The notes: generated by a model from the letters alone, not told the origin. A stretch of DNA of 64,000 nt from a virus (IMGVR_UViG_3300026521_000343:5265-69264), one strand, 5' to 3'. Positions 21,633 through 61,676 are shown, counted from the first letter of the stretch. A program made the numbers and translations.

Positions 21633-21893
21633 ATGAGAGAAATTGACGTAACAACAAAACAGTTGTCTGTAGAGATGATACCAAGCGAGGAAGTGCAGAT
21701 AACGAGCTGTAATGCAATTCAGAACTGCTCAAATACTTATGTGCTGTATAGCTTCGAGCCATTTAGTGCTACAAACTTAGGAGCTACTCTTGCACTTGGA
21801 GGATTGTTAACTATGCCGATTGGAGAAGCAACTATTTATCTCAAAGCAAGTAGCCAGCCGACACATATTGAAGCGTTTGGAGTTGCGTTATGA
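21633..21893 (+). CDS. Small tail-associated protein
   Basis: Homologous to 55438-55698; overlaps tailspike start. Confidence 0.55.
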   Translation: MREIDVTTKQLSVEMIPSEEVQITSCNAIQNCSNTYVLYSFEPFSATNLGATLALGGLLTMPIGEATIYLKASSQPTHIEAFGVAL

Positions 21894-24046
21894 GTAAAAA
21901 TTTAGATTTTACACGAAATTCAAAAGAGTTAAGAGATACAATGAAATGGAATAAAGTTGTATATACAAGAGAACAACTAAAAACAGCTAAAGGTACTATT
22001 GGAGATATTATATTCCAAAAAGATATTGACCTGAAGTATGAATGGGTAGAGCCACAACTTACTGATAATGGTGGCACTATTATTAATACTAATGGAGATA
22101 CAATAGGGAGTTGGAAAGCAATTTTTAGTGGTAATGTAAATCCTATTTGGTTTGGCGTTAAGAGCGGAGAAAGTGCATATTCAACAGCTAATAGTATAGC
22201 TTTTGATAAAGTTAGAACTTATTGTAAAAATAATTCATTAAAGGCAGTATTGCCAGATGGAAATTATTATATATCCGAAACTCTTGTTCTGGATTATGAT
22301 TTTAGTGGAACATCTAGAAAAAATACTGTAATAATACAAAATTTTCCTAATTTAAAATATGGTGATGGGGAAATGTACGCTACCTATGACGACATGATTT
22401 CCAGTGAATTAGAAACAAGATTGTATTATCATTATAGTGATACAACAAAAAATATCTTTGAATATGTTTTTCCAAAAACAGCTGTTGTGCAATTAATTTC
22501 TCATGAGTATTTAGAAGTATCAAATTTTTCAGTAAAAGGTGGAAATGACGCAATTTACAATGACGATACATTAACTAGAGTAATACCAGTAACATGTGTT
22601 AGTACATTTAATTTTAATTTAGATAATAAAGAAATGATACACCATTTTAATAGATCTAAACTTTCTAATATCAGAGCATATAATGGCTATGTCTTATATG
22701 CTTTAACTGGGTGGATATCTATATTTGATAGTTTATTTGGAACAGGAGGATACATTGGTGCGTATATGTACGAATTTAATAATAATAGTATTGATATAAA
22801 AATGGAAAATGTTAAACTACCTTTAGACATACATGAAGCTGATGTTTTATTTTTTAATACTGTTTCTGCCGAAGGTTATATATCTATGTTACCTTCACAA
22901 ATGAGTAGATGTAAAAATATAGAAATAAACGGAATTTATGTAGAATCAAATGGTACTAATAACCCTCTTTTTGAAATAGGCGTGAGAGAGGCGGTAAACC
23001 CACCATGGAATGATTACAATAAATGTTTTAATATAAATATTTTAAATTGTTTACCCGGTACAGTTACGGGTGATACACTAGCACCAGTTTTAAAAATAGA
23101 TAGTGCCAATGGTATTACACTGACTGGGTTGCAAATACAACTAGATAGACCTAATGTAAGTACCACTAATTTAAGCATGAATGTTAATCACAATGGATTT
23201 GTAACTACAAGTAATAATATAATAAAAACTATTGATAATAATATAAAACCTTTAAATTTATCGCCAAATCCTGTTTTTAAATATAATTTATCTGGATATT
23301 ATTTTGCAGATAGAGATAGCACACATACAATAATCGAAAGTGGCGTAGAAATTACTAGCCCTAGATGTGGTAAAGTAATAAAAGTTGTAGCAGATGGGAA
23401 TGGTTTATCTGGTATAAGTTTATATCTTAAATATTTAGATTTTCCTAAATATTTAAAAGCTGGTGATCAAGTTAGCATTGGTGTCTGGGTATATGTACCG
23501 TATACAAATGATACTAAAGACTACACACCATTTCTTTCATCAAGAATACAAGATTTAGATAGTAATGGTAGTGATGGTGTTGGCAAATCTATTGTTGGTA
23601 AACCTGTATATATAACATCTACACATATTGTCCCAGAAAATTTGTCGCATGTAATAGCTACATTGTATATGAATACATCAGGTACAATGCCTGCCGGCAC
23701 AGTAATGTATCTAATGTCATTTGACGTTTTTTGTGGGAGTAACGTTATTGCTGCTGGTAATAATAATTTTAATCCAGATTTTTCACCAATAGCTACTGAC
23801 ACTGGTAGTTATTTAAAATATAAAACGACTGGTGTGTATTACAATAATATAGAAGCAGGTGCTAGGATAGATAACCCTGATTATGGTTCCGTGGATGGTG
23901 CTAGTCCAGAGTTAGTATGTAATAACTTTGGAGATAGTTTTAATTATTTTATTCCTATTGGGATACCCCCTGTGCTACCAACAATAAATCAAGGAGCGGG
24001 TACTTGGTGGCTGAACAATGGTGTATTAACTCAAGGGAGTGATTAA
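21890..24046 (+). CDS. Tailspike/depolymerase (pectate-lyase-like beta-helix)
   Basis: DNGGTII..W, VNPIWFG, LPDGNYYIS; N/I/G-rich beta-helix composition. Confidence 0.75.
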   Translation: MSKNLDFTRNSKELRDTMKWNKVVYTREQLKTAKGTIGDIIFQKDIDLKYEWVEPQLTDNGGTIINTNGDTIGSWKAIFSGNVNPIWFGVKSGESAYSTANSIAFDKVRTYCKNNSLKAVLPDGNYYISETLVLDYDFSGTSRKNTVIIQNFPNLKYGDGEMYATYDDMISSELETRLYYHYSDTTKNIFEYVFPKTAVVQLISHEYLEVSNFSVKGGNDAIYNDDTLTRVIPVTCVSTFNFNLDNKEMIHHFNRSKLSNIRAYNGYVLYALTGWISIFDSLFGTGGYIGAYMYEFNNNSIDIKMENVKLPLDIHEADVLFFNTVSAEGYISMLPSQMSRCKNIEINGIYVESNGTNNPLFEIGVREAVNPPWNDYNKCFNINILNCLPGTVTGDTLAPVLKIDSANGITLTGLQIQLDRPNVSTTNLSMNVNHNGFVTTSNNIIKTIDNNIKPLNLSPNPVFKYNLSGYYFADRDSTHTIIESGVEITSPRCGKVIKVVADGNGLSGISLYLKYLDFPKYLKAGDQVSIGVWVYVPYTNDTKDYTPFLSSRIQDLDSNGSDGVGKSIVGKPVYITSTHIVPENLSHVIATLYMNTSGTMPAGTVMYLMSFDVFCGSNVIAAGNNNFNPDFSPIATDTGSYLKYKTTGVYYNNIEAGARIDNPDYGSVDGASPELVCNNFGDSFNYFIPIGIPPVLPTINQGAGTWWLNNGVLTQGSD

Positions 24047-26399: not shown

Positions 26400-26898
26400 C
26401 TATCTTTTTTCTTAATTTGTTTATTTTTAAAGTTGGCTCTTTATGTACAACTTCAAGTCTAGCACCATCAACATTAACACCATCTTCAATAGCATTTTTA
26501 ATTGCTGTCTTATCAAGAACCGTTTTAAAATAACCTGCATTGACTAAAGCCTCTTCATTCTCTACAATAAGCTCAATTTTTGGCTTAGAATTTAGAATAG
26601 AGACACTTGATACTGCCATACCGCTTAACTTACTTACTCCAACATCACTTAACCATTTTGAAGAACCTATCTTGATAGTTTCAATCTGTTTTTGAACATC
26701 TGCTTTTAATGCCTTAATATTTGCCTCAGCCTCCTTAATGTTATCAATCTTTGCTTCAAGATTTGCAGCTGAAAACGCAATGTAGTCAGCTACAGCCTCA
26801 GGTGATTTTTCTTTTAACTTCCAATCTAAAATTGCGCCTACATTTTCAATATTTGCGGTCTCTAAAGAAGTTTGCTTTGTATTTAGTCCTTTTTCCAT
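26383..26898 (-). CDS. Siphovirus Gp157-like protein
   Basis: LDKTAIKNAIEDGVNVDGARL. Confidence 0.75.
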   Translation of the reverse strand: MEKGLNTKQTSLETANIENVGAILDWKLKEKSPEAVADYIAFSAANLEAKIDNIKEAEANIKALKADVQKQIETIKIGSSKWLSDVGVSKLSGMAVSSVSILNSKPKIELIVENEEALVNAGYFKTVLDKTAIKNAIEDGVNVDGARLEVVHKEPTLKINKLRKKIDENSI

Positions 26899-28783: not shown

Positions 28784-29470
28784 AACTAATCCTTTTTATT
28801 ATCATAATACTCAAAAATAAATATAGTAATTACTGTAAATAGCCACAGCAACACCACGCCAAAAATCCCATAAATCATATTGAAATAATATTCAGTCATC
28901 GAAGTGCCAATTCTAAGCACAGTGCAAAAATAATTGATATAACAATACTTTCTATAAATAGAGATTTAATAGGGTGCTTCATACACCATCGCCAATAATT
29001 TCGCTCTACCTCATTAAAACTTTTCATAATATCTCCTTTTTTGAACTTAAAAAGCTCACGACACACATCAAGGAAAAAATGATAAAACCTTTTAAAAACA
29101 AAATATCGAGTTCAAAATAAAGGAGTAACTATTTTTTTTAATGTGTGTAATCAACTTTTTTAGAAACACACCGTTCGGAATTTAGCTGAATTGGAGATGT
29201 GCTTCATCAAAAAGTTTAAATCGGTTTATTTAGTGACCGAAATTCTATTTTAATCCATTCACTATCTAGGACTTATAAATAAATATTAAGAAATAAAATC
29301 TCTTAAATAACTCAAACAAAAAGCTAAACTTCTCGTTTGCATAGGAAAATTATAATAGAATATTTCTTAAATGTTTATTAATTTAGTAATACCTTTTACA
29401 ATTTGTAAAGTAATACCTATTTAAGGTTAGTTATTGTAGAATTTCACATATACATATTAAAAGGAATAGA

Positions 29471-29632
29471 ATGAAAGTGTTTTCAATAAAGCTGAATGAG
29501 GCTGATTATAATCTACTAAGGACCGCTGCAATGAAGTCATATGATGCAGATAAGCATAAGAAGTCTTACGGGGTTGGAACGTTTATTAAAGAGGCTTCAA
29601 TTTCAAAAGCTAAAAGGGTGGTTAAAAAATGA
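29471..29632 (+). CDS. Small ribbon-helix-helix-like regulator
   Basis: Hand translation MKVFSIKLNEADYNLLRTAA..VGTFIKEAS; AAGGA SD; first gene of B's rightward operon. Confidence 0.55.
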   Translation: MKVFSIKLNEADYNLLRTAAMKSYDADKHKKSYGVGTFIKEASISKAKRVVKK

Positions 29633-29967
29633 TAAGTAAAGAATTATTAAGTGCTGTTACAGGAATGGAATGCAGTGAAGGAAGAGAATTATATGGGAAA
29701 TGGAGCAACAAGATAGAGTTCTCTATATCTAAGCACAATCATTTTAACTATGCAGTAAAAGATACGATTAACATCTATGAACTTGCGTATAAATGCAAAA
29801 AATGGGCTTTAAAGAATAATGTAAAATTGTGGTCAATCTTAGATAGTTACAATAGTGCAATAGTGAGAATTAATGAAATTAGCAAAAGAGAATTTTATTC
29901 ACACACAGAGCCAGATGCAATATTTAAAGCTTGTGAATGGATATTAGAAAATAAAGATAAGAAATAA
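29629..29967 (+). CDS. Hypothetical protein (paralog of 38266-38688)
   Basis: SKELL..INIYELA..CK.WA..TEP..FK.C.W. Confidence 0.65.
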   Translation: MISKELLSAVTGMECSEGRELYGKWSNKIEFSISKHNHFNYAVKDTINIYELAYKCKKWALKNNVKLWSILDSYNSAIVRINEISKREFYSHTEPDAIFKACEWILENKDKK

Positions 29968-30182
29968 TGGATAACATCGCACAACTAAACACACAGCTAG
30001 ACAGAGATAAAGTGCTAGACAATGCTATTTATTATGCAATATGCGGGCTACACGGCTTAAAAGATGGTGACACTATTACAAGTGTGGTGAGGCTTGAAAT
30101 TGCTATGTATTATATTCAGAGAGCTATTAACAATATTAAGGAGAATAAGAACTATGAATCAAAAACAAAGAATACTAACTGA
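29967..30182 (+). CDS. Hypothetical protein
   Basis: Coupled ORF. Confidence 0.45.
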   Translation: MDNIAQLNTQLDRDKVLDNAIYYAICGLHGLKDGDTITSVVRLEIAMYYIQRAINNIKENKNYESKTKNTN

Positions 30183-30378
30183 CTTGTTAAAAGGCTTACA
30201 CGTCAATATGCTTAACGACCTGGAACGATACGGAAGCAGTTGCAGAAGCAGAATATCCGAACTACGTGCTAGTGGTTACCCAATAAAAGATTATTTTGAA
30301 CTTTCACCAAACGGAAGCAGATACAAAGTTTATTTTCTTGATGCGGAATATCTAAAGGAGTATCACAATGCAAAATAA
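30154..30378 (+). CDS. Winged-HTH protein
   Basis: QKQRIL..RSRISELRASGYPI..YFL; AAGGAG SD. Confidence 0.65.
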   Translation: MNQKQRILTDLLKGLHVNMLNDLERYGSSCRSRISELRASGYPIKDYFELSPNGSRYKVYFLDAEYLKEYHNAK

Positions 30379-30580
30379 AGAGAAGTTGGAAGAGTTGAAA
30401 CGAGATCACGACATAGAAATCAGAATGAGAACTGATTTTGAGTTTGCACTTGAAACAATATCGGAGAAACACAACATCACAGCGGATGATATTTCAAATT
30501 TTAAAGATACTATTACGGAATTAAAAGAGTATTGGAACGACATTAGTTGTGATGAGGTTTTTGAAGCTGTTTTGTCGTAG
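30368..30580 (+). CDS. Hypothetical protein
   Basis: AAGGAG SD; acidic ORF. Confidence 0.55.
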   Translation: MQNKEKLEELKRDHDIEIRMRTDFEFALETISEKHNITADDISNFKDTITELKEYWNDISCDEVFEAVLS

Positions 30581-30605
30581 CAAAGTTTTTAATTAAGCTT
30601 TGTTT

Positions 30606-30763
30606 TGGTATAATTACAGCATACAAAATTCAATAAATGCAAGTTCATAACTTAGCGGTCTCGCTTGCATTTATTGAGTCTTGAAGTGAAGAGACCGCTA
30701 TCCTTCACATATAAAACAATCAAACTCTAAAATTAAAATCTAGCGGTAACTAAAGGTTACATA
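30606..30763 (+). ncRNA. Structured leader RNA (two hairpins with complementary loops) ahead of B's replication genes
   Basis: TGGTATAAT 30606-30614; 14-bp stem 30630-43/30664-77; stem 30686-91/30703-08; tagcggtctc and gagaccgcta are complementary. Confidence 0.6.
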
Positions 30764-31132
30764 ATGGAAAATAAAATATACAAGGCTTCTGCTACATACG
30801 ACATAGAAAAATCTATAATAGTATCAGTAATAGAAAATAGCTTTATTGGTAACGATAATAGAATAGTTGATGTTTCTCTTAATAGCTCTTATTTTAACGA
30901 TAGTTTTCATAAGTTGATAGTCAATGCCATAAATAGATTAAAAGAGCTTGGAGAGCCTATAGACTCAGATTTTATACGACTTAAGTTTATAGAGGTTAAA
31001 AAATGGAATACTGATTATGATAATAAATTGATTGAAATTATGTATCATAATCCAATAGGTACACTTGATCTGTTTAATAGCTATTATTCAAAACTTAAGA
31101 AACTAAATAACAGCAAGGTGGCAATGATATGA
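30764..31132 (+). CDS. Stand-alone DnaB-helicase N-terminal-like domain
   Basis: IEKSII..YFNDSFHKLIVNAINRLKELGEPID; resembles the N-domain of 1663-2922. Confidence 0.7.
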   Translation: MENKIYKASATYDIEKSIIVSVIENSFIGNDNRIVDVSLNSSYFNDSFHKLIVNAINRLKELGEPIDSDFIRLKFIEVKKWNTDYDNKLIEIMYHNPIGTLDLFNSYYSKLKKLNNSKVAMI

Positions 31133-31788
31133 AAAAAGCATTTAATTTTTATGCTTCTTATGATGAAGTATTTCAGGAACTTGATTTAAATCAAAAAGGA
31201 ATAATGATAAATGCTATCTTAGACGTTCAGTTTTTAAGAAAACATATAGATGATATATCATTCAAAGATAAGATACTTTCTATAGTATGGAAAGGTATGA
31301 AGCACAGTATTTTAAAACAGATAGATGGATATTGTAGAGCAAATAAAACACCCTATAATAGGGAGCTTTTTGCCCCTAAGGCAGACTTTCAACCTAGCCC
31401 TAAGGCAGACTTTCAACCTAGCCCCAAGCAAGTACAAGTACAAGTACAAGAGGAAGAACAAGAGCCTATTGTCCAAACTAAAAGTTTAGACGCTAGTTTT
31501 AAAATTGCAGAGTATTTATTAAATAACATCTTAAAGTTAAATACATCTTTTAAGAGACCTAACCTAAATACATGGGCTAAAGATATTGACAAAGCTATAA
31601 GAATTGACAATAGAACAGAAGAACAACTAAAATATTGTATTGACTGGATATATTCACATGAAGGAAGCTTTTGGCAAAAAAATATCTTAAGTGGGAAAAA
31701 ACTAAGAGAAAAGTTTGATACAATAAATATGCAAATGATTACAAAAGATAATAGTCAAACATCAGGGAACATAATATGCAACTGGTAG
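31129..31788 (+). CDS. Replication initiator
   Basis: KKAFNFYASY N-domain; WAKDI..IDNR..FWQKNILSGKKLREKFD C-domain (lambda O-like); internal repeats. Confidence 0.75.
   Translation: MKKAFNFYASYDEVFQELDLNQKGIMINAILDVQFLRKHIDDISFKDKILSIVWKGMKHSILKQIDGYCRANKTPYNRELFAPKADFQPSPKADFQPSPKQVQVQVQEEEQEPIVQTKSLDASFKIAEYLLNNILKLNTSFKRPNLNTWAKDIDKAIRIDNRTEEQLKYCIDWIYSHEGSFWQKNILSGKKLREKFDTINMQMITKDNSQTSGNIICNW
31374..31450 (+). repeat. Tandem 24-bp repeat x2 plus caagta x3 (putative phage B origin)
   Basis: ccctaaggcagactttcaacctag at 31374-31397 and 31398-31421. Confidence 0.75.
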
Positions 31789-32756
31789 ATAAATTTGAAG
31801 AGTTAGCAAAAGAAATAAGAGAAATTACTCTTGCAGTAGATAGTGCAACTAAACAAGAAAATTGGGATCAAGTAACAGTATTAAAAAGAGAACTATACAC
31901 AAAGAAAATAGAACAAATAGATGAACTTGAGAGTGAAAATGCTTTAGCCTCAACACTTACAGCAAAGCAATTAAGAGGCGATGTTGAGGCAAGACCACAT
32001 ATCCCTAGATATGAAACAGGGATAGGAGCACTTGACGAAAAGTTAAAAGGTGGAATTGAATCTGGTACATTTATTCAGCTAGCTGGCGAAAGTTTTGCAG
32101 GAAAAACACACTTAACATTAGAGATATTATCAAACATTTCTAATGCGAATAAAGTTTTGTTTTTTAACTTTGAAATGGGTGATACTAGAATTTCAAATAG
32201 ACTATACAAGTTGCTAACAACAGAAAAGCAATGGAATAATTTTCTAATAAATTCAAAAGCACGAAAGATAAATGATATTATAAAGGAGATAAAAAGTCGA
32301 GCAAGAGATGGCATCAGATTTTTTGCAATTGACTCTAAAATGAAAATTGAAGTACCTAGTGAAAATGATGCTTATAAAGCTATAAATGAAATATCAAAAC
32401 AGTTGTCTAAAGTTGCACAACAAGAAGAGATAATTATTTTCTTGATTAATCAAATGAATGAAGAAGATCAAAAAAATAATAGACTGGCATTTAAAGGAAG
32501 TGGAGATCAGATGTACGACACAGATATAGCCTTGTTTTATATGGTAAAAAAAGAAAAGAATGTAAACCCTGAACAATGGAAGCGAACTTTAGTTTGTAGA
32601 AAAAACAGGCAAGATGAAATATTATTTAGTGTCGATTTACATTTAGACCATACAGGCAAAACAGTAGGAGATGGTGTTGCATATTCGTATGAAAATATAA
32701 AGCAGCCAGAAGTTACAGAGTACAATCAAAACAATATCTCAATGAGTGTACTTTAG
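31776..32756 (+). CDS. DnaB-like C-terminal RecA-fold helicase
   Basis: TGIGALD..GG, AGESFAGKT, FFNFEM, LINQ, KGSGD..YDTD, RKNR. Confidence 0.8.
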   Translation: MQLVDKFEELAKEIREITLAVDSATKQENWDQVTVLKRELYTKKIEQIDELESENALASTLTAKQLRGDVEARPHIPRYETGIGALDEKLKGGIESGTFIQLAGESFAGKTHLTLEILSNISNANKVLFFNFEMGDTRISNRLYKLLTTEKQWNNFLINSKARKINDIIKEIKSRARDGIRFFAIDSKMKIEVPSENDAYKAINEISKQLSKVAQQEEIIIFLINQMNEEDQKNNRLAFKGSGDQMYDTDIALFYMVKKEKNVNPEQWKRTLVCRKNRQDEILFSVDLHLDHTGKTVGDGVAYSYENIKQPEVTEYNQNNISMSVL

Positions 32757-58790: not shown

Positions 58791-58987
58791 TGTACCGTTT
58801 TTGTACCGTTTTTATGCAATAAAATTTCAATGTATGTAATGATTTTAAGATGAATGATGAAGAAAGAACCTATAGTTCAGGAAGTTTGCTTGAAATAATA
58901 AGTATTGTTTATTTCTCGCTTAATTTTTATTTATGCGTATTATAGGGAGTTTTTTTTAACAGTGTACCGTTTTTGTACCGTTTTTAT
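58791..58987. other. Putative attP with paired arm-type integrase sites
   Basis: tgtaccgtttttgtaccgtttttat at 58791-58815 and 58963-58987, each made of tandem 11-mers, at the 3' end of int. Confidence 0.7.
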
Positions 58988-60047
58988 ATCTTTTTTCTAA
59001 AAACTCTATTTTCATTTTTTCCTTGCGTGGTAAAAAATGCGCATATATTTCGAGCGTGATTTTAACATTCTCATGCCCAAGTGTTGCTGAAACCCACATA
59101 GGATCTATGCCATTATTTAGCATCATACTTGCAAAAGTATGCCTGGCGCTATGCAGAGGCCTGTGTTCTAAGTTTAAGCTCTTTAGTAGGCTTGTAAACT
59201 TTGACAACCATGTAGAACCTTGTGTATAATGCGACTGTTTTGCATTTAGAAAAACAAAAGTGTTTTTCATCCCTGTTAAAAGCCTTTGGCTCTTAAAAAA
59301 ATGCTTAGCTTGCTCAAGCATCTCGATATCTCTGTCGCTCGAGAGAGTCTTTGGTGTTCCAATCGTTCCAGCTGATACTGTTTTGTTTATGGTTATAGTA
59401 TCAGTTTTGAAATCAACATCATCCCACTTCAGAGCCAATAGTTCACCAATTCTCATACCTGTAAAGAATAATATTCCAAGAAAATTCTTGAAGTCACCAC
59501 TAACATTATCTAAGATAGTGTCCATCTCATCAAGTGTGAAAACTTTTACAGACTGTTTTTTAGTGCTCTTCTTATATGTTGGAGTGCTAACCATCTTCAC
59601 TGGGTTAACATCGATCTCGCCTCTTAGAATTGCATCTTGAAACACTTCTGATAATAGATATCTTGATTGCCCTATTGTCGCTTTTCCGATAATACCTTTA
59701 CTCTGTATATAGTCATGGTACTTTTTGATATCAATAGGTTTTATCTGAGCAACTGTTTTATCTTCAAAATATGGCTTAATGTAATTTTTGAAAGTAACTC
59801 TATAATTTCTTATAGTGCTTTCTTTTTTTGTACTACATTGTAAGTTTATAAAATTTTGTACTAAATCAGTAATCAACCGAGAATCGTCACTCACTAAATT
59901 CAGATCATCGTCAAAGAGTCCTTTGTAGAACTTGTTTTGAATGATGTTTTTATTTACGGAGTTGTATTTCATCTTAGAAGATTTAAACTTATCGCCTATG
60001 CCGAAGTATAAAATACCATTGCGATTTTTAAAGCGTAGCTTTCTCAT
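58956..60047 (-). CDS. int: Tyrosine integrase
   Basis: TGMRIGELLALKW, PKT, HSARHTFAS, LGH..ITLEIY. Confidence 0.95.
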   Translation of the reverse strand: MRKLRFKNRNGILYFGIGDKFKSSKMKYNSVNKNIIQNKFYKGLFDDDLNLVSDDSRLITDLVQNFINLQCSTKKESTIRNYRVTFKNYIKPYFEDKTVAQIKPIDIKKYHDYIQSKGIIGKATIGQSRYLLSEVFQDAILRGEIDVNPVKMVSTPTYKKSTKKQSVKVFTLDEMDTILDNVSGDFKNFLGILFFTGMRIGELLALKWDDVDFKTDTITINKTVSAGTIGTPKTLSSDRDIEMLEQAKHFFKSQRLLTGMKNTFVFLNAKQSHYTQGSTWLSKFTSLLKSLNLEHRPLHSARHTFASMMLNNGIDPMWVSATLGHENVKITLEIYAHFLPRKEKMKIEFLEKRYKNGTKTVHC

Positions 60048-60324
60048 GTACTAATCCTCTTGCTAGTTTGTCTCTAAACTCAAGGATCTTATCTTCATCA
60101 AACACTATGATTTTAGCATTTTTATAAAAATAATGATAGCCTTCAGTAAGTAGTCCGCTTGACATGTAGTTGTTTATGGTTCGCTCTGACTTTCCAAGAA
60201 ACTTGGCCACCTCTTTTTTTGTTGTGAGTGGTGGGGCAAATTTTGCGATGCGGTCAGACATCTGTTGCACAGCTGATAGAAGCTCCGGGATGAGTTCTAA
60301 GTTTTCAAAGGCTTCTACATTCAT
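60028..60324 (-). CDS. Excisionase-like HTH protein
   Basis: TKKEVAKFLGKSERTINNY; overlaps the int start. Confidence 0.65.
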   Translation of the reverse strand: MNVEAFENLELIPELLSAVQQMSDRIAKFAPPLTTKKEVAKFLGKSERTINNYMSSGLLTEGYHYFYKNAKIIVFDEDKILEFRDKLARGLVHEKATL

Positions 60325-60344
60325 ATTCGCTCCTTATTGTGTTT

Positions 60345-60986
60345 TTACTTTTTGTGTTGCAGCTCCAGGCTTCTTGATGTCACATCAAGTGACTCTTCAA
60401 ATCTAGTAATGATATCTTTGCCTACTTGTGAGACTATGAGTGAGAGTTGTTGTTTCATCTTTTGCTTGAGTGTTTCGTTTTCATTGAGTGTTTTTTCATA
60501 GAGTTCTGTCAGGTGTTTATGTTTGCTTTGTTCTATGTTTATGTTTTGTGTTGTTGCAGCTATGAGTGCGTTTTGTTTGAGGATGATTTCTTGGAGTTCT
60601 TTTACTGAACTGTTTGGTATTTGTGAAGAGCTTGATTTGTTGTTTTGCATTTGATGTTTAAGTTCAAAGTATCTGTGTAGAACTTCAAAGCACTCGTTTT
60701 TGTACTCTATGAGTTTGTCTCTTACCTCTGGCTTAACACGGTTTGGATTGATGCTAAAGAGCCAGCCGTTAAGTTTGTTTAGTGGGATACAAAATACTTC
60801 TTGCATTCCACCGTTTGTTTGAACTTTTATAAGTTTTGATTGATAGCTTGGATCAGCTTTTATCTTTTTATACTGTTTTATATAATCGATACCGATAGCA
60901 TTGCATATATCTTTTACAACAACTGCTTGACTGTCTTTGATAATTTCAATATTATCGTTCTTAAAGCTCACTTGAATTAAATCCAT
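60345..60986 (-). CDS. Antirepressor (P22 Ant N-terminal domain)
   Basis: KDICNAIGID..CIPLNKLNGWLFSINPNRVKPEVRDKLIEYKNEC. Confidence 0.85.
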   Translation of the reverse strand: MDLIQVSFKNDNIEIIKDSQAVVVKDICNAIGIDYIKQYKKIKADPSYQSKLIKVQTNGGMQEVFCIPLNKLNGWLFSINPNRVKPEVRDKLIEYKNECFEVLHRYFELKHQMQNNKSSSSQIPNSSVKELQEIILKQNALIAATTQNINIEQSKHKHLTELYEKTLNENETLKQKMKQQLSLIVSQVGKDIITRFEESLDVTSRSLELQHKK

Positions 60987-60997
60987 AATCAAATCCT

Positions 60998-61082
60998 TTT
61001 TTATTGATTTTTTACAATCTATTTGGGAATTATAATTGATTTAATACTTTATGTCAAGTACTTTTTATTGATTTTTTACAAT
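60998..61082 (-). promoter_or_regulatory. Consensus promoter for the antirepressor, flanked by 21-bp direct repeats
   Basis: Minus-strand TTGACA (61052-57), 17 nt, TATAAT (61029-34); tttttattgattttttacaat at 60998-61018 and 61062-61082. Confidence 0.8.
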
Positions 61083-61142
61083 TTATGTATTTTTGTGTGT
61101 GGATTTAATCCATAAAAGGTATTGCCCTTAAGGTATATACCT

Positions 61143-61676
61143 TTAGCTAATAGCCTTTTTTATGGCGGTTTTTAAATTATCGTAATCTTGCAGCTGTTCT
61201 TTTAATCGTACATTTTCAAGATACATTTCTATGGCTTTTGCTAGTTGTTCACTAATTTTTCCAGTAGAAGCAGATTTATTTACAGTATCTGGTTTGTACC
61301 CAACAATTTCTGCCAACTCCTTATAAGTCAGTCCAAGCTCTTTACATGTAGCTTTAACTATGTTTGGCTTTTCTTCTGTAGATTCTTCAAACGATATAAC
61401 GATAGTGCCATAGCTATTGCCGTCAGCATCTTCAGCATTGAAATAGACTGGCTCTTCTGGGTAATCGCAGTTTTTATAAACCGTTATGTGAAGATCAGAA
61501 CCATTTTTATTATCAATAAAAACATTCTGCATCTCTGGTATAGATGGGAAACTTGGGTCAGGATGCTTGGAAAAAGCTTCTCGAAGTATGTGTTCAACAT
61601 CTTTTACAGAGAGATGCCCTTCATCGGGCCTTCTTACAATATATGGCACTTTACCATAAAGCTTCATCTCTTCCAT
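61143..61676 (-). CDS. Protein with C-terminal XRE-type HTH
   Basis: NIVKATCKELGLTYKELAEIVGYKPDTV. Confidence 0.7.
   Translation of the reverse strand: MEEMKLYGKVPYIVRRPDEGHLSVKDVEHILREAFSKHPDPSFPSIPEMQNVFIDNKNGSDLHITVYKNCDYPEEPVYFNAEDADGNSYGTIVISFEESTEEKPNIVKATCKELGLTYKELAEIVGYKPDTVNKSASTGKISEQLAKAIEMYLENVRLKEQLQDYDNLKTAIKKAIS

Follow-up and report, generated by a model that had tools for sequence, protein, structure and literature searches.

How a phage could keep its own replication genes in check through the messenger RNA that encodes them is the question raised by a short spacer in a DNA stretch of 64,000 nucleotides (nt) (IMGVR_UViG_3300026521_000343:5265-69264). This stretch, called the window below, is derived from an IMG/VR virus record of 69,264 bases, and its numbering is used throughout. 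Upstream of a replication module, the spacer contains a long hairpin (hairpin 1) with an element A in its loop, a second hairpin (hairpin 2) presenting the complementary element B, and a partial copy of A (element A′) near the Shine-Dalgarno (SD) sequence of the first gene (Table 1). An initial annotation of this DNA had listed these components, a −10 motif and GTAAC/GTTAC arms around an AAAGG SD, and all of them are present where it placed them. The reading preferred here, with a probability of roughly 0.55, is that positions 30615–30766 form the structured 5′ mRNA leader of the replication operon in a temperate phage of vent Campylobacterota, with control by pairing of B with A′ versus pairing of B with A.

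Pairing between loop 1 and element B

Related loci were sampled by anchoring on the helicase and the DnaB_N-like protein encoded downstream, and the region compared at each locus was the spacer upstream of the first replication-module gene. Viral contigs gave 12 loci and then 22 (12 of these repeat earlier contigs), metagenome contigs 8 and genome contigs 6.

Locus L014 has a first gene 99% identical to that of the window and the same leader save in the two loops. These read TAGCGG-CTC and GAG-CCGCTA: each partner has lost one base at complementary positions, and nine of nine pairs remain. Loop 1 of this locus also has a 2-nt deletion elsewhere, and loop 2 has one substitution. The 983-nt block aligned with the window contains 16 mismatches and 4 gap positions, and every gap position falls in loop 1 or loop 2. 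Contigs of sequencing run X2 likewise have the 30659 and the 30694 deletion; contigs of the DNA runs break at the hairpin, and the two deletions cannot be linked in them. The GGTCTC core, considered as a restriction site, is lost in L014, and this candidate was discarded.

More distant leaders have the contact in other letters. In L002 (first gene 56% identical), hairpin 1 has 13 bp with one A·C, A lies on the 3′ side of a 17-nt loop, and 13 nt separate it from B; the pair is TTGCCGGGC/GCCCGGCAA. L032 and L033 have a 14-bp hairpin with TTGACGGTCTCTC in its loop and GAGAGACCGTCAA 24 nt downstream. A MAFFT alignment of the window, L014, L002 and L032 (alignment A4) gives an A:B helix of 10 pairs with 100% of the cells paired, 5 pairs changed on both sides and none broken, and the deletion columns of L014 pair with each other. 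Helix 1 is 83.9% paired in A4, an understatement because MAFFT set the L032 arms one column off register (the stem of L032 itself has 14 bp). With both helices counted jointly, the covariation seen is equalled in 0 of 500 shuffles; pairing in slid controls is 34–42%.

The same layout with unrelated sequences is found in L035 and L010. L035 has a 10-bp hairpin with one U·G, A (CTTGGTCGAGG) in the loop and CCTCGACCAAG as B (loop-to-downstream pairing, p 0.010); L010 has an 11–20-bp hairpin with wobbles, TTGGCGGTGG as A and CCATCGCCAA as B with one G·U (p 0.037). Both resisted structure-consistent alignment, and their support consists of these per-sequence tests. Compensatory change, in the paired deletions of L014 and in alignment A4, bears out the earlier claim that loop 1 pairs with loop 2, and the complementarity of the loops extends to L035 and L010.

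Beyond these loci, L008 has a homologous hairpin 1 of 13 bp with altered arms, and in other leader types (L013, L022, L025, L031 and a second unit in L019) a hairpin loop pairs downstream with p 0.003–0.033. In all, 10 of the 13 leaders contain a hairpin of 8 bp or more with a loop that pairs downstream (p ≤ 0.05), up to 4 hairpins having been tried per leader. The relevant hairpins of L008 and L048 miss p 0.05, while another L048 hairpin gives 0.040. The hairpin finder allowed 0 mismatches, and hairpin 1 of L002, seen elsewhere as 12 Watson-Crick pairs plus one A·C, was left unscored there.

In folds of the sequence 3′ of hairpin 1, B is placed in a hairpin loop in the window and L014 (GUGAAG/CUUCAC), in L035 (AAGAAGUA/UACUUUU) and in L010 (GAAGUA/UACUUC). 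Both partners are thus seen in hairpin loops in three independent lineages, as had been claimed for the window. The stem enclosing B is weak in L002 and L032. By these predicted folds, the term kissing loops fits the three lineages (window/L014, L035 and L010), and a hairpin loop pairing with a downstream strand fits all leaders.

The RNA fold of 30621–30790 has an energy of −37.6 kcal/mol, compared with −21.5 ± 3.4 for shuffled sequences (z −4.69; 0 of 200 shuffles as good). The duplex of loop 1 with the downstream sequence reaches −18.0 kcal/mol against a null mean of −7.7, with p 0.003, which is the floor of 300 shuffles. On the plus strand, each of the 13 leaders has a better fold than shuffled sequences (z −2.2 to −6.7). 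Chance complementarity in an AT-rich spacer would agree with the lack of enrichment of TAGCGGT and of the −10 motif TGNTATAAT across the window, but it is hardly credible, being contradicted by the fold z, the loop-duplex test, the covariation in A4 and the paired deletions of L014. TAGCGGT occurs 4 times in 64 kb versus 2.3 expected, and 24 of 100 shuffles reach 4, so overall enrichment is absent; three of the four copies fall within 95 nt at the leader. A sequence one mismatch away from A, TTGCGGTCTC, is found at 26853–26862 near the 5′ end of a minus-strand gene of 171 amino acids (aa), at a chance-level frequency.

The plus strand is favored by the kinds of mismatch found inside the helices. 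Among 56 interior single mismatches, G·T or T·G accounts for 18, A·C or C·A for 3 and other types for 35 (binomial p 0.0015). This count covers helices with at least 9 Watson-Crick pairs in 12 non-redundant leaders, with L014 and its hairpin shared with L019 excluded, and is crude, since some helices overlap. Because transitions in a duplex palindrome should yield both classes equally, the bias of G·T over A·C indicates a single-stranded plus-strand form. In 11 of 13 leaders (all but L002 and L032) the plus strand also has the more negative fold z; for 30621–30790 of the window, the minus strand gives z −2.32 (2 of 200 shuffles). As far as sequence comparison goes, this form points to an mRNA leader. 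The indications of a sense-strand 5′ untranslated region are indirect and consist of gene orientation, the −10-like motif, the wobble bias and the z values.

A DNA-level element could account for part of these observations. Repeats bound by a protein, as in operators or iterons, or a single-stranded DNA structure for origin function or priming could change in concert through protein specificity or through template-switch correction of quasi-palindromes. Three GC-rich copies of 7–10 nt do lie in an AT-rich spacer adjoining replication genes, mutation alone can yield concerted change in inverted repeats, and perfect Watson-Crick arms do not tell RNA from DNA. This explanation is nevertheless highly improbable, since A and B always lie inside other inverted repeats that covary themselves, and the copies are of unequal length (13, 13 and no third in L032). 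In the window the copy lengths are 10, 10 and 7 nt and the centre spacings, by eye, about 41 and 47 bp, unlike the uniform length and regular spacing of an iteron array. Candidate iterons are located elsewhere, in the O-like gene (24 nt × 2.3 at 31374–31428). The 18 G·T against 3 A·C mismatches, unexpected for a double-stranded site, are compatible with plus-strand single-stranded DNA. The A:B contact is attributed, with high confidence, to selection on a single-stranded plus-strand form, which would be mRNA under the RNA readings and plus-strand DNA under the DNA-level one. The conserved kissing-loop or pseudoknot leader before the replication genes is real, and it is very likely an RNA control element of a kind as yet uncatalogued.

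Table 1. Features of the leader, the replication module and the lysogeny-type cluster in the window
Feature	Position	Strand	Description
Extended −10-like motif TGGTATAAT	30606–30614	+	Putative leader promoter; direct sequence reading
Hairpin 1	30628–30679	+	14 perfect pairs (30630–30643/30664–30677), 17 with two U·G pairs; 20-nt loop; −19.9 kcal/mol
Element A, TAGCGGTCTC	30653–30662	+	3′ side of loop 1
Hairpin 2	30686–30708	+	6-bp stem GTGAAG/CTTCAC (30686–30691/30703–30708), B in loop; −7.8 kcal/mol
Element B, GAGACCGCTA	30691–30700	+	Exact complement of A; repeat finder: 10 nt, 100%, 28 nt between arms
A-rich unpaired spacer	30709–30740	+	Sequence kept in window, L014, L002, L035 and L010 (alignment A5)
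Element A′, TAGCGGT	30741–30747	+	Incomplete A copy, complement of B, directly 5′ of SD
Start-site hairpin	30739–30768	+	UCUA/UGGA (30739–30742/30765–30768) over GUAACU/GGUUAC (30746–30751/30755–30760); −7.0 kcal/mol
DnaB_N-like protein, 122 aa	30764–31132	+	First replication-module gene; PF00772, 23.1 bits (cut-off 23)
O/DnaD-like initiator or helicase loader, 219 aa	31129–31788	+	phrog_2514, E 9.7e-26
DnaB_C-type helicase, 326 aa	31776–32756	+	PF03796, E 2e-12; phrog_19, E 1.1e-18
Tyrosine integrase	58956–60047	−	
P22 antirepressor N-domain protein	60345–60992	−	

A third copy at the start site

The start site of the first gene, with its SD (AAAGG) at 30752–30756 and its AUG at 30764–30766, is enclosed in a two-tier hairpin that covers both G of the SD together with the U and G of the AUG; the GTAAC/GTTAC arms occupy 30746–30750/30756–30760. 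The stretch taken up by A′ comprises the 3′ half of the outer stem, then the internal loop, and ends with the inner stem's first two pairs.

Complementarity between B and this region was scored for B with short flanks against the last 35 nt up to the AUG, with 1000 shuffles of that stretch. The window gives a duplex of 7 bp (−12.3 kcal/mol versus −5.2 in the null; p 0.004), L014 gives p 0.014 and L002 p 0.002, and the results for L035 (p 0.054) and L010 (p 0.045) are marginal. Of six subfamily leaders, five thus have an A′ that matches their own B, two of these marginally. The Fisher combination is 3.5e-5 for five independent subfamily lineages (near-duplicate L014 excluded) and 1.9e-4 when three other leader types are added. 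In the five matching leaders A′ starts 20–25 nt before the AUG, directly 5′ of the (G)TAAC/TATC arm, with a sequence that differs by lineage (by eye TAGCGGT, TTTGCCG, GGTCG and GTTGG). The two-tier hairpin recurs in L035, where pairs have changed (GUAUCU/GGAUAC), and L002 carries an extra upstream copy, ACGGCAAATGT, complementary to 11 nt at A′. Since A′ is matched by lineage within the subfamily, two alternative partners for loop 2 are a conserved subfamily feature.

In another leader type, L020:430-530 (related L024:1036-1086), the loop of a long hairpin, TTAGTCCTTGT, is complementary to 11 nt over the SD region ACAAGGACTAA. That SD region belongs to a winged-helix-like gene preceding the DnaB_N-like gene.

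Under the proposed mechanism, B would act as an activator loop with two possible partners, A and A′. Pairing of B with A′ would pull the start-site hairpin apart and free the ribosome site, in the manner of the activating pseudoknot of IncI-alpha/IncB plasmids. Pairing with A, which is stronger and transcribed first, would hold B away, and the start site would stay closed. Hairpin 1 would then serve as an intrinsic decoy by which translation of the replication genes is set or limited, and anything that occupies, cleaves or unfolds loop 1 could raise their expression. That this competition is the working mechanism is given a little short of even odds.

A number of observations weigh against the preferred reading, and several of them concern the balance between the two partners. 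In a model restricted to nested pairs, the leader reaches a minimum of −36.7 kcal/mol and, with B:A′ forced, −31.0; forcing B:A′ thus costs 5.7 kcal/mol before the −18 kcal/mol of A:B is counted. As A:B is the stronger duplex and the forced state is costly, the A:B state with a closed start site should dominate in cis at equilibrium, and B:A′ should, on these energies, need A to be occupied, cut or not yet folded. A′ is absent from L032 (p 0.26, although by eye the 3′ end of B is 7-of-8 complementary to the SD) and from other leader types (L031 p 0.74, L022 0.79, L025 0.088). In L014 the paired deletions left A′ unchanged, which reduces B:A′ to 6 bp. For the A:B contact itself, L019 keeps hairpin 1 and loop A with no partner for A (p 0.75), in run X3 every contig over 30659 has the deletion and an unlinked contig over 30694 does not, and a full 10-bp helix between two closed loops would be strained, so that hairpin 2 may need to open. 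The raw energy of the window is lower on the minus strand (−40.0 versus −37.6 and −36.2 versus −33.9 kcal/mol), and the strand call for the window therefore rests on the family. As for transcription, the −10 motif TGNTATAAT has 5 matches versus 6.2 expected and is not above chance, the sigma-70 scan did not call the site at 30606–30614 (the promoter is only putative), and RNA run X6 gave 0 contigs over 30084–32363, which is uninformative either way. The two-state switch that had been proposed is upheld as regards two conserved partners for loop 2 in the subfamily; actual switching is unsupported, with B:A′ at an energetic disadvantage in cis.

A static structured leader would fold into a single compact shape, shielding the 5′ end against nucleases or serving as a processing site (e.g., for a double-strand-specific RNase), with no switch and with A′ as a relic of duplication. 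Such a leader could explain why A:B is much stronger than B:A′ (−18.0 versus −12.3 kcal/mol), why the nested minimum retains all three hairpins, why A′ did not follow the deletions of A and B in L014, and why pseudoknotted leaders without A′ exist (L032, L031, L022 and L025). It is considered rather unlikely, because a duplication relic would have drifted, whereas in five of six subfamily leaders (two marginally) an A′ at one and the same position fits the B of its own lineage, and A′ is positioned exactly across the stems of the start-site hairpin.

The proposed transcript and its relation to known systems

The support for a leader promoter is confined to −10-like motifs at the 5′ edge of homologous leaders, where TATAAT or TATACT (motifs chosen by the analyst) was found in the intergenic leaders queried. 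A promoter-like match, TTCACA-18-TAAAAT at 30704–30733, overlaps the A-rich spacer and is at chance level. A 51-nt stretch just 3′ of TATAAT is 94% identical between L002:2790-2840 and L012:2675-2725, whose leaders are otherwise different, and it is apparently a conserved promoter-proximal element.

Between 30621 and 30763 a scan blind to Rho-dependent sites detected no terminator-like site; the two found in 29000–31200 are at 29221–29240 and 29313–29339. On the minus strand, no promoter-like site is found in 30620–30790; the nearest 9-of-12 matches occur from 30882–30855 outward (11 found versus 12.4 expected). An antisense RNA ending at hairpin 1 was considered and rejected: the minus-strand T-run is not kept in L032 (by eye) and a minus-strand leader promoter is absent. 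No open reading frame (ORF) of at least 40 aa is present in 30581–30763. A leader peptide in hairpin 1 was likewise rejected, as the sole ATG frame (15 codons, 30637–30684, by eye) has no SD and is absent in L002. L048:3700-3790 has an ATG ORF of 22 codons, which follows a partial loop-sequence copy and precedes the first long gene's SD; in that lineage only, it may encode a leader peptide.

Rfam gave 0 matches at the gathering score in the 64-kb window and 0 in 13 related loci. Ten sub-threshold matches (E ≤ 10) were obtained in 30400–30900, none of them to the P1 c4/P4 CI family, for which Rfam has a C4 model.

PMC8053102 describes, for the IncI-alpha/IncB plasmids ColIb-P9 and pMU720, a repZ/repA leader pseudoknot required for RepZ translation to initiate and blocked by a competing loop partner, an antisense RNA. 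The geometry of B:A′ is the same: the loop of a leader hairpin complements a short GC-rich stretch lying directly 5′ of the ribosome site, over 7 bp in the window, and this recurs in L002, L014 and, marginally, L010 and L035. The differences are that the proposed competitor in the phage leader is a sense loop of the same transcript (A), with no evident countertranscript, that the leader has no leader peptide, and that the first gene is DnaB_N-like with the initiator second. Moreover, a Campylobacterota phage is compared with enterobacterial plasmids, and there is no relation in sequence or by Rfam.

In P1 and P7, the c4 RNA shows the same layout of a flanked element in a leader. The kissing-loop antisense RNAs of ColE1 (RNA I/RNA II) and R1 (CopA/CopT) control plasmid replication through loop–loop recognition between hairpins in the replication control region, and the phage leader resembles them in this respect. 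Their recognition is, however, intermolecular and between opposite strands, whereas the loops of the vent phage lie on one strand of one putative transcript.

For P4, PMC4825925 describes an untranslated leader of the replication operon in which the CI RNA lies between seqA and seqC and keeps the replication genes from being expressed. The phage leader has a comparable order, a central element B flanked by complementary A upstream and A′ downstream. P4 acts by premature termination via a processed trans-acting RNA; the vent-phage leader has no terminator-like site and no processed RNA is known from it. The initial annotation had drawn the analogy with both IncI/IncB and P4 CI/P1 c4. It fits the layout and fails as family membership, given 0 Rfam matches, no leader peptide and no terminator; the leader resembles both systems and is a member of neither family.

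The A–B–A′ order, which mirrors that described for P4 in PMC4825925, could also indicate a trans-acting RNA of the P4/P1 style, in which a stable small RNA cut out of the leader, containing either hairpin 1 and its A or hairpin 2 and its B, would base-pair with matching sites of other transcripts and shut down replication genes in the prophage and in superinfecting relatives. The phage is temperate, as its integrase suggests, and the loops differ between near-identical relatives (window versus L014), as immunity specificities do. This possibility is judged very unlikely in view of 0 Rfam matches, antisense families included, and a leader without a terminator-like site. Nor were further copies of A or B found in the examined parts of L050, L002, L035, L010 and L014, or in the 69-kb record beyond one-mismatch chance matches, which were all that a search for trans targets elsewhere returned.

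An RNA-only circuit of the plasmid type is a speculative extension and unlikely. In such a circuit the sense-strand decoy hairpin, which competes for the activating loop and is very stable, may accumulate and act in trans, and could set copy number or superinfection immunity, with a specificity reset by paired loop mutations (window versus L014) and swapped by recombination (L019).

If the preferred mechanism is true, deep-sea Campylobacterota phages control their replication genes by a three-element RNA device consisting of a decoy loop, an activator loop and a ribosome-site-proximal site. The logic of this device is known from enterobacterial plasmids and P4; here it would be built wholly on the sense strand. 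With its clear compensatory changes, the element is a candidate for a new RNA family and offers a tractable case for the evolution of loop–loop specificity. Structured leaders before replication genes are already well known, and one more is no surprise in kind.

Gene setting, host and module exchange

The claim that the leader precedes replication genes is confirmed by the DnaB_N-like, O/DnaD-like and DnaB_C matches downstream (Table 1). The N-terminal domain of DnaB is encoded by a separate small gene, which in the window (30764–32756) is followed by the initiator and then the helicase; in L015, L016 and L021 it lies directly 3′ of the helicase gene instead. Only 2 relatives of the 122-aa DnaB_N-like protein, besides itself, were found among 14 candidates. 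Upstream of the leader, five small plus-strand ORFs (29471–30580) start from a divergent region at about 29.1–29.5 kb, and an operon on the opposite strand contains an Erf-like gene and an ORF read by eye as SSB.

The O-like gene contains tandem repeats at 31374–31463, the 24-nt unit (× 2.3) being followed by a 6-nt unit (× 3.7), and run X4 has a variant with a 6-nt insertion at 31428. By analogy with lambda-type O genes, these repeats are candidate origin iterons.

The best named phage relatives of the helicase are Sulfurimonas phage SNW-1 and Helicobacter phages. In genome contigs its relatives come from metagenome-assembled genomes titled Sulfurovum, Sulfurimonas, Campylobacterota and similar, and from one titled Gammaproteobacteria. 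The sequencing runs that contain this stretch are labeled as hydrothermal vent or epibiont metagenomes. On the basis of these helicase relatives and run labels, the host is most likely a member of the Campylobacterota. No close DNA relatives were found by blastn against 50,697 phage records, no close relatives by protein and DNA pattern scans of viral contigs or in the first genome-contig scan, and two later viral-contig scans added no contigs. Among 401 genomes sampled from the class to which G001 (the genome carrying L023) belongs, 8 have prophages with a distant helicase relative (E ≤ 1e-40). Seven of the eight upstream regions were examined and show CI/Cro-like divergent regions, with 0 leaders of this type.

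A recombination joint cuts through the leader in L019. As far as the 5′ edge of B (window 30693/30694; L019:904/905), this locus has the L014 sequence; beyond the joint it has a different pseudoknotted hairpin unit and a first gene that is 43% identical, and loop A is left partnerless. Judged from this joint, hairpin 1 travels with the upstream genes, and B and the start site travel with the replication genes. Together with the paired loop deletions of L014, the joint suggests that the leader element participates in the exchange of modules and may bear on immunity specificity.

L014 is otherwise about 98% identical to the window, except that blocks 29630–30153 and 31137–31767 are replaced by other sequence. 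The first block comprises small early ORFs and the second nearly the whole gene of the O-like initiator. Contigs of run X2 have the same joints, skipping 29628–30154 and 31136–31768, the latter with 676 other letters in its place. The initiator cassette is apparently swapped, and the DnaB_N-like and helicase genes stay.

The phage is evidently temperate, as deduced from the integrase. The integrase and antirepressor-like genes belong to a lysogeny-type cluster (58956–61676, minus strand; region 58.9–61.7 kb), which also includes an excisionase-like ORF with an HTH_17 match below the Pfam cut-off and a 177-aa ORF with a sub-threshold HTH_3 match. An S24-peptidase CI-like frame straddles the first bases of the window (G000:5169-5516). 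The suggestion that this phage is CI-less and that the RNA replaces a protein repressor was not sustained, as the record holds this frame together with the HTH_3 ORF, the integrase and the antirepressor-like ORF. A 718-aa ORF at 21890–24046 was read by eye as tail-fibre-like, and packaging and head genes lie at 40–46 kb. The lysogeny cluster, the CI-like frame, the tail-fibre-like ORF and the packaging and head genes, taken together, suggest two phage units or a permuted assembly.

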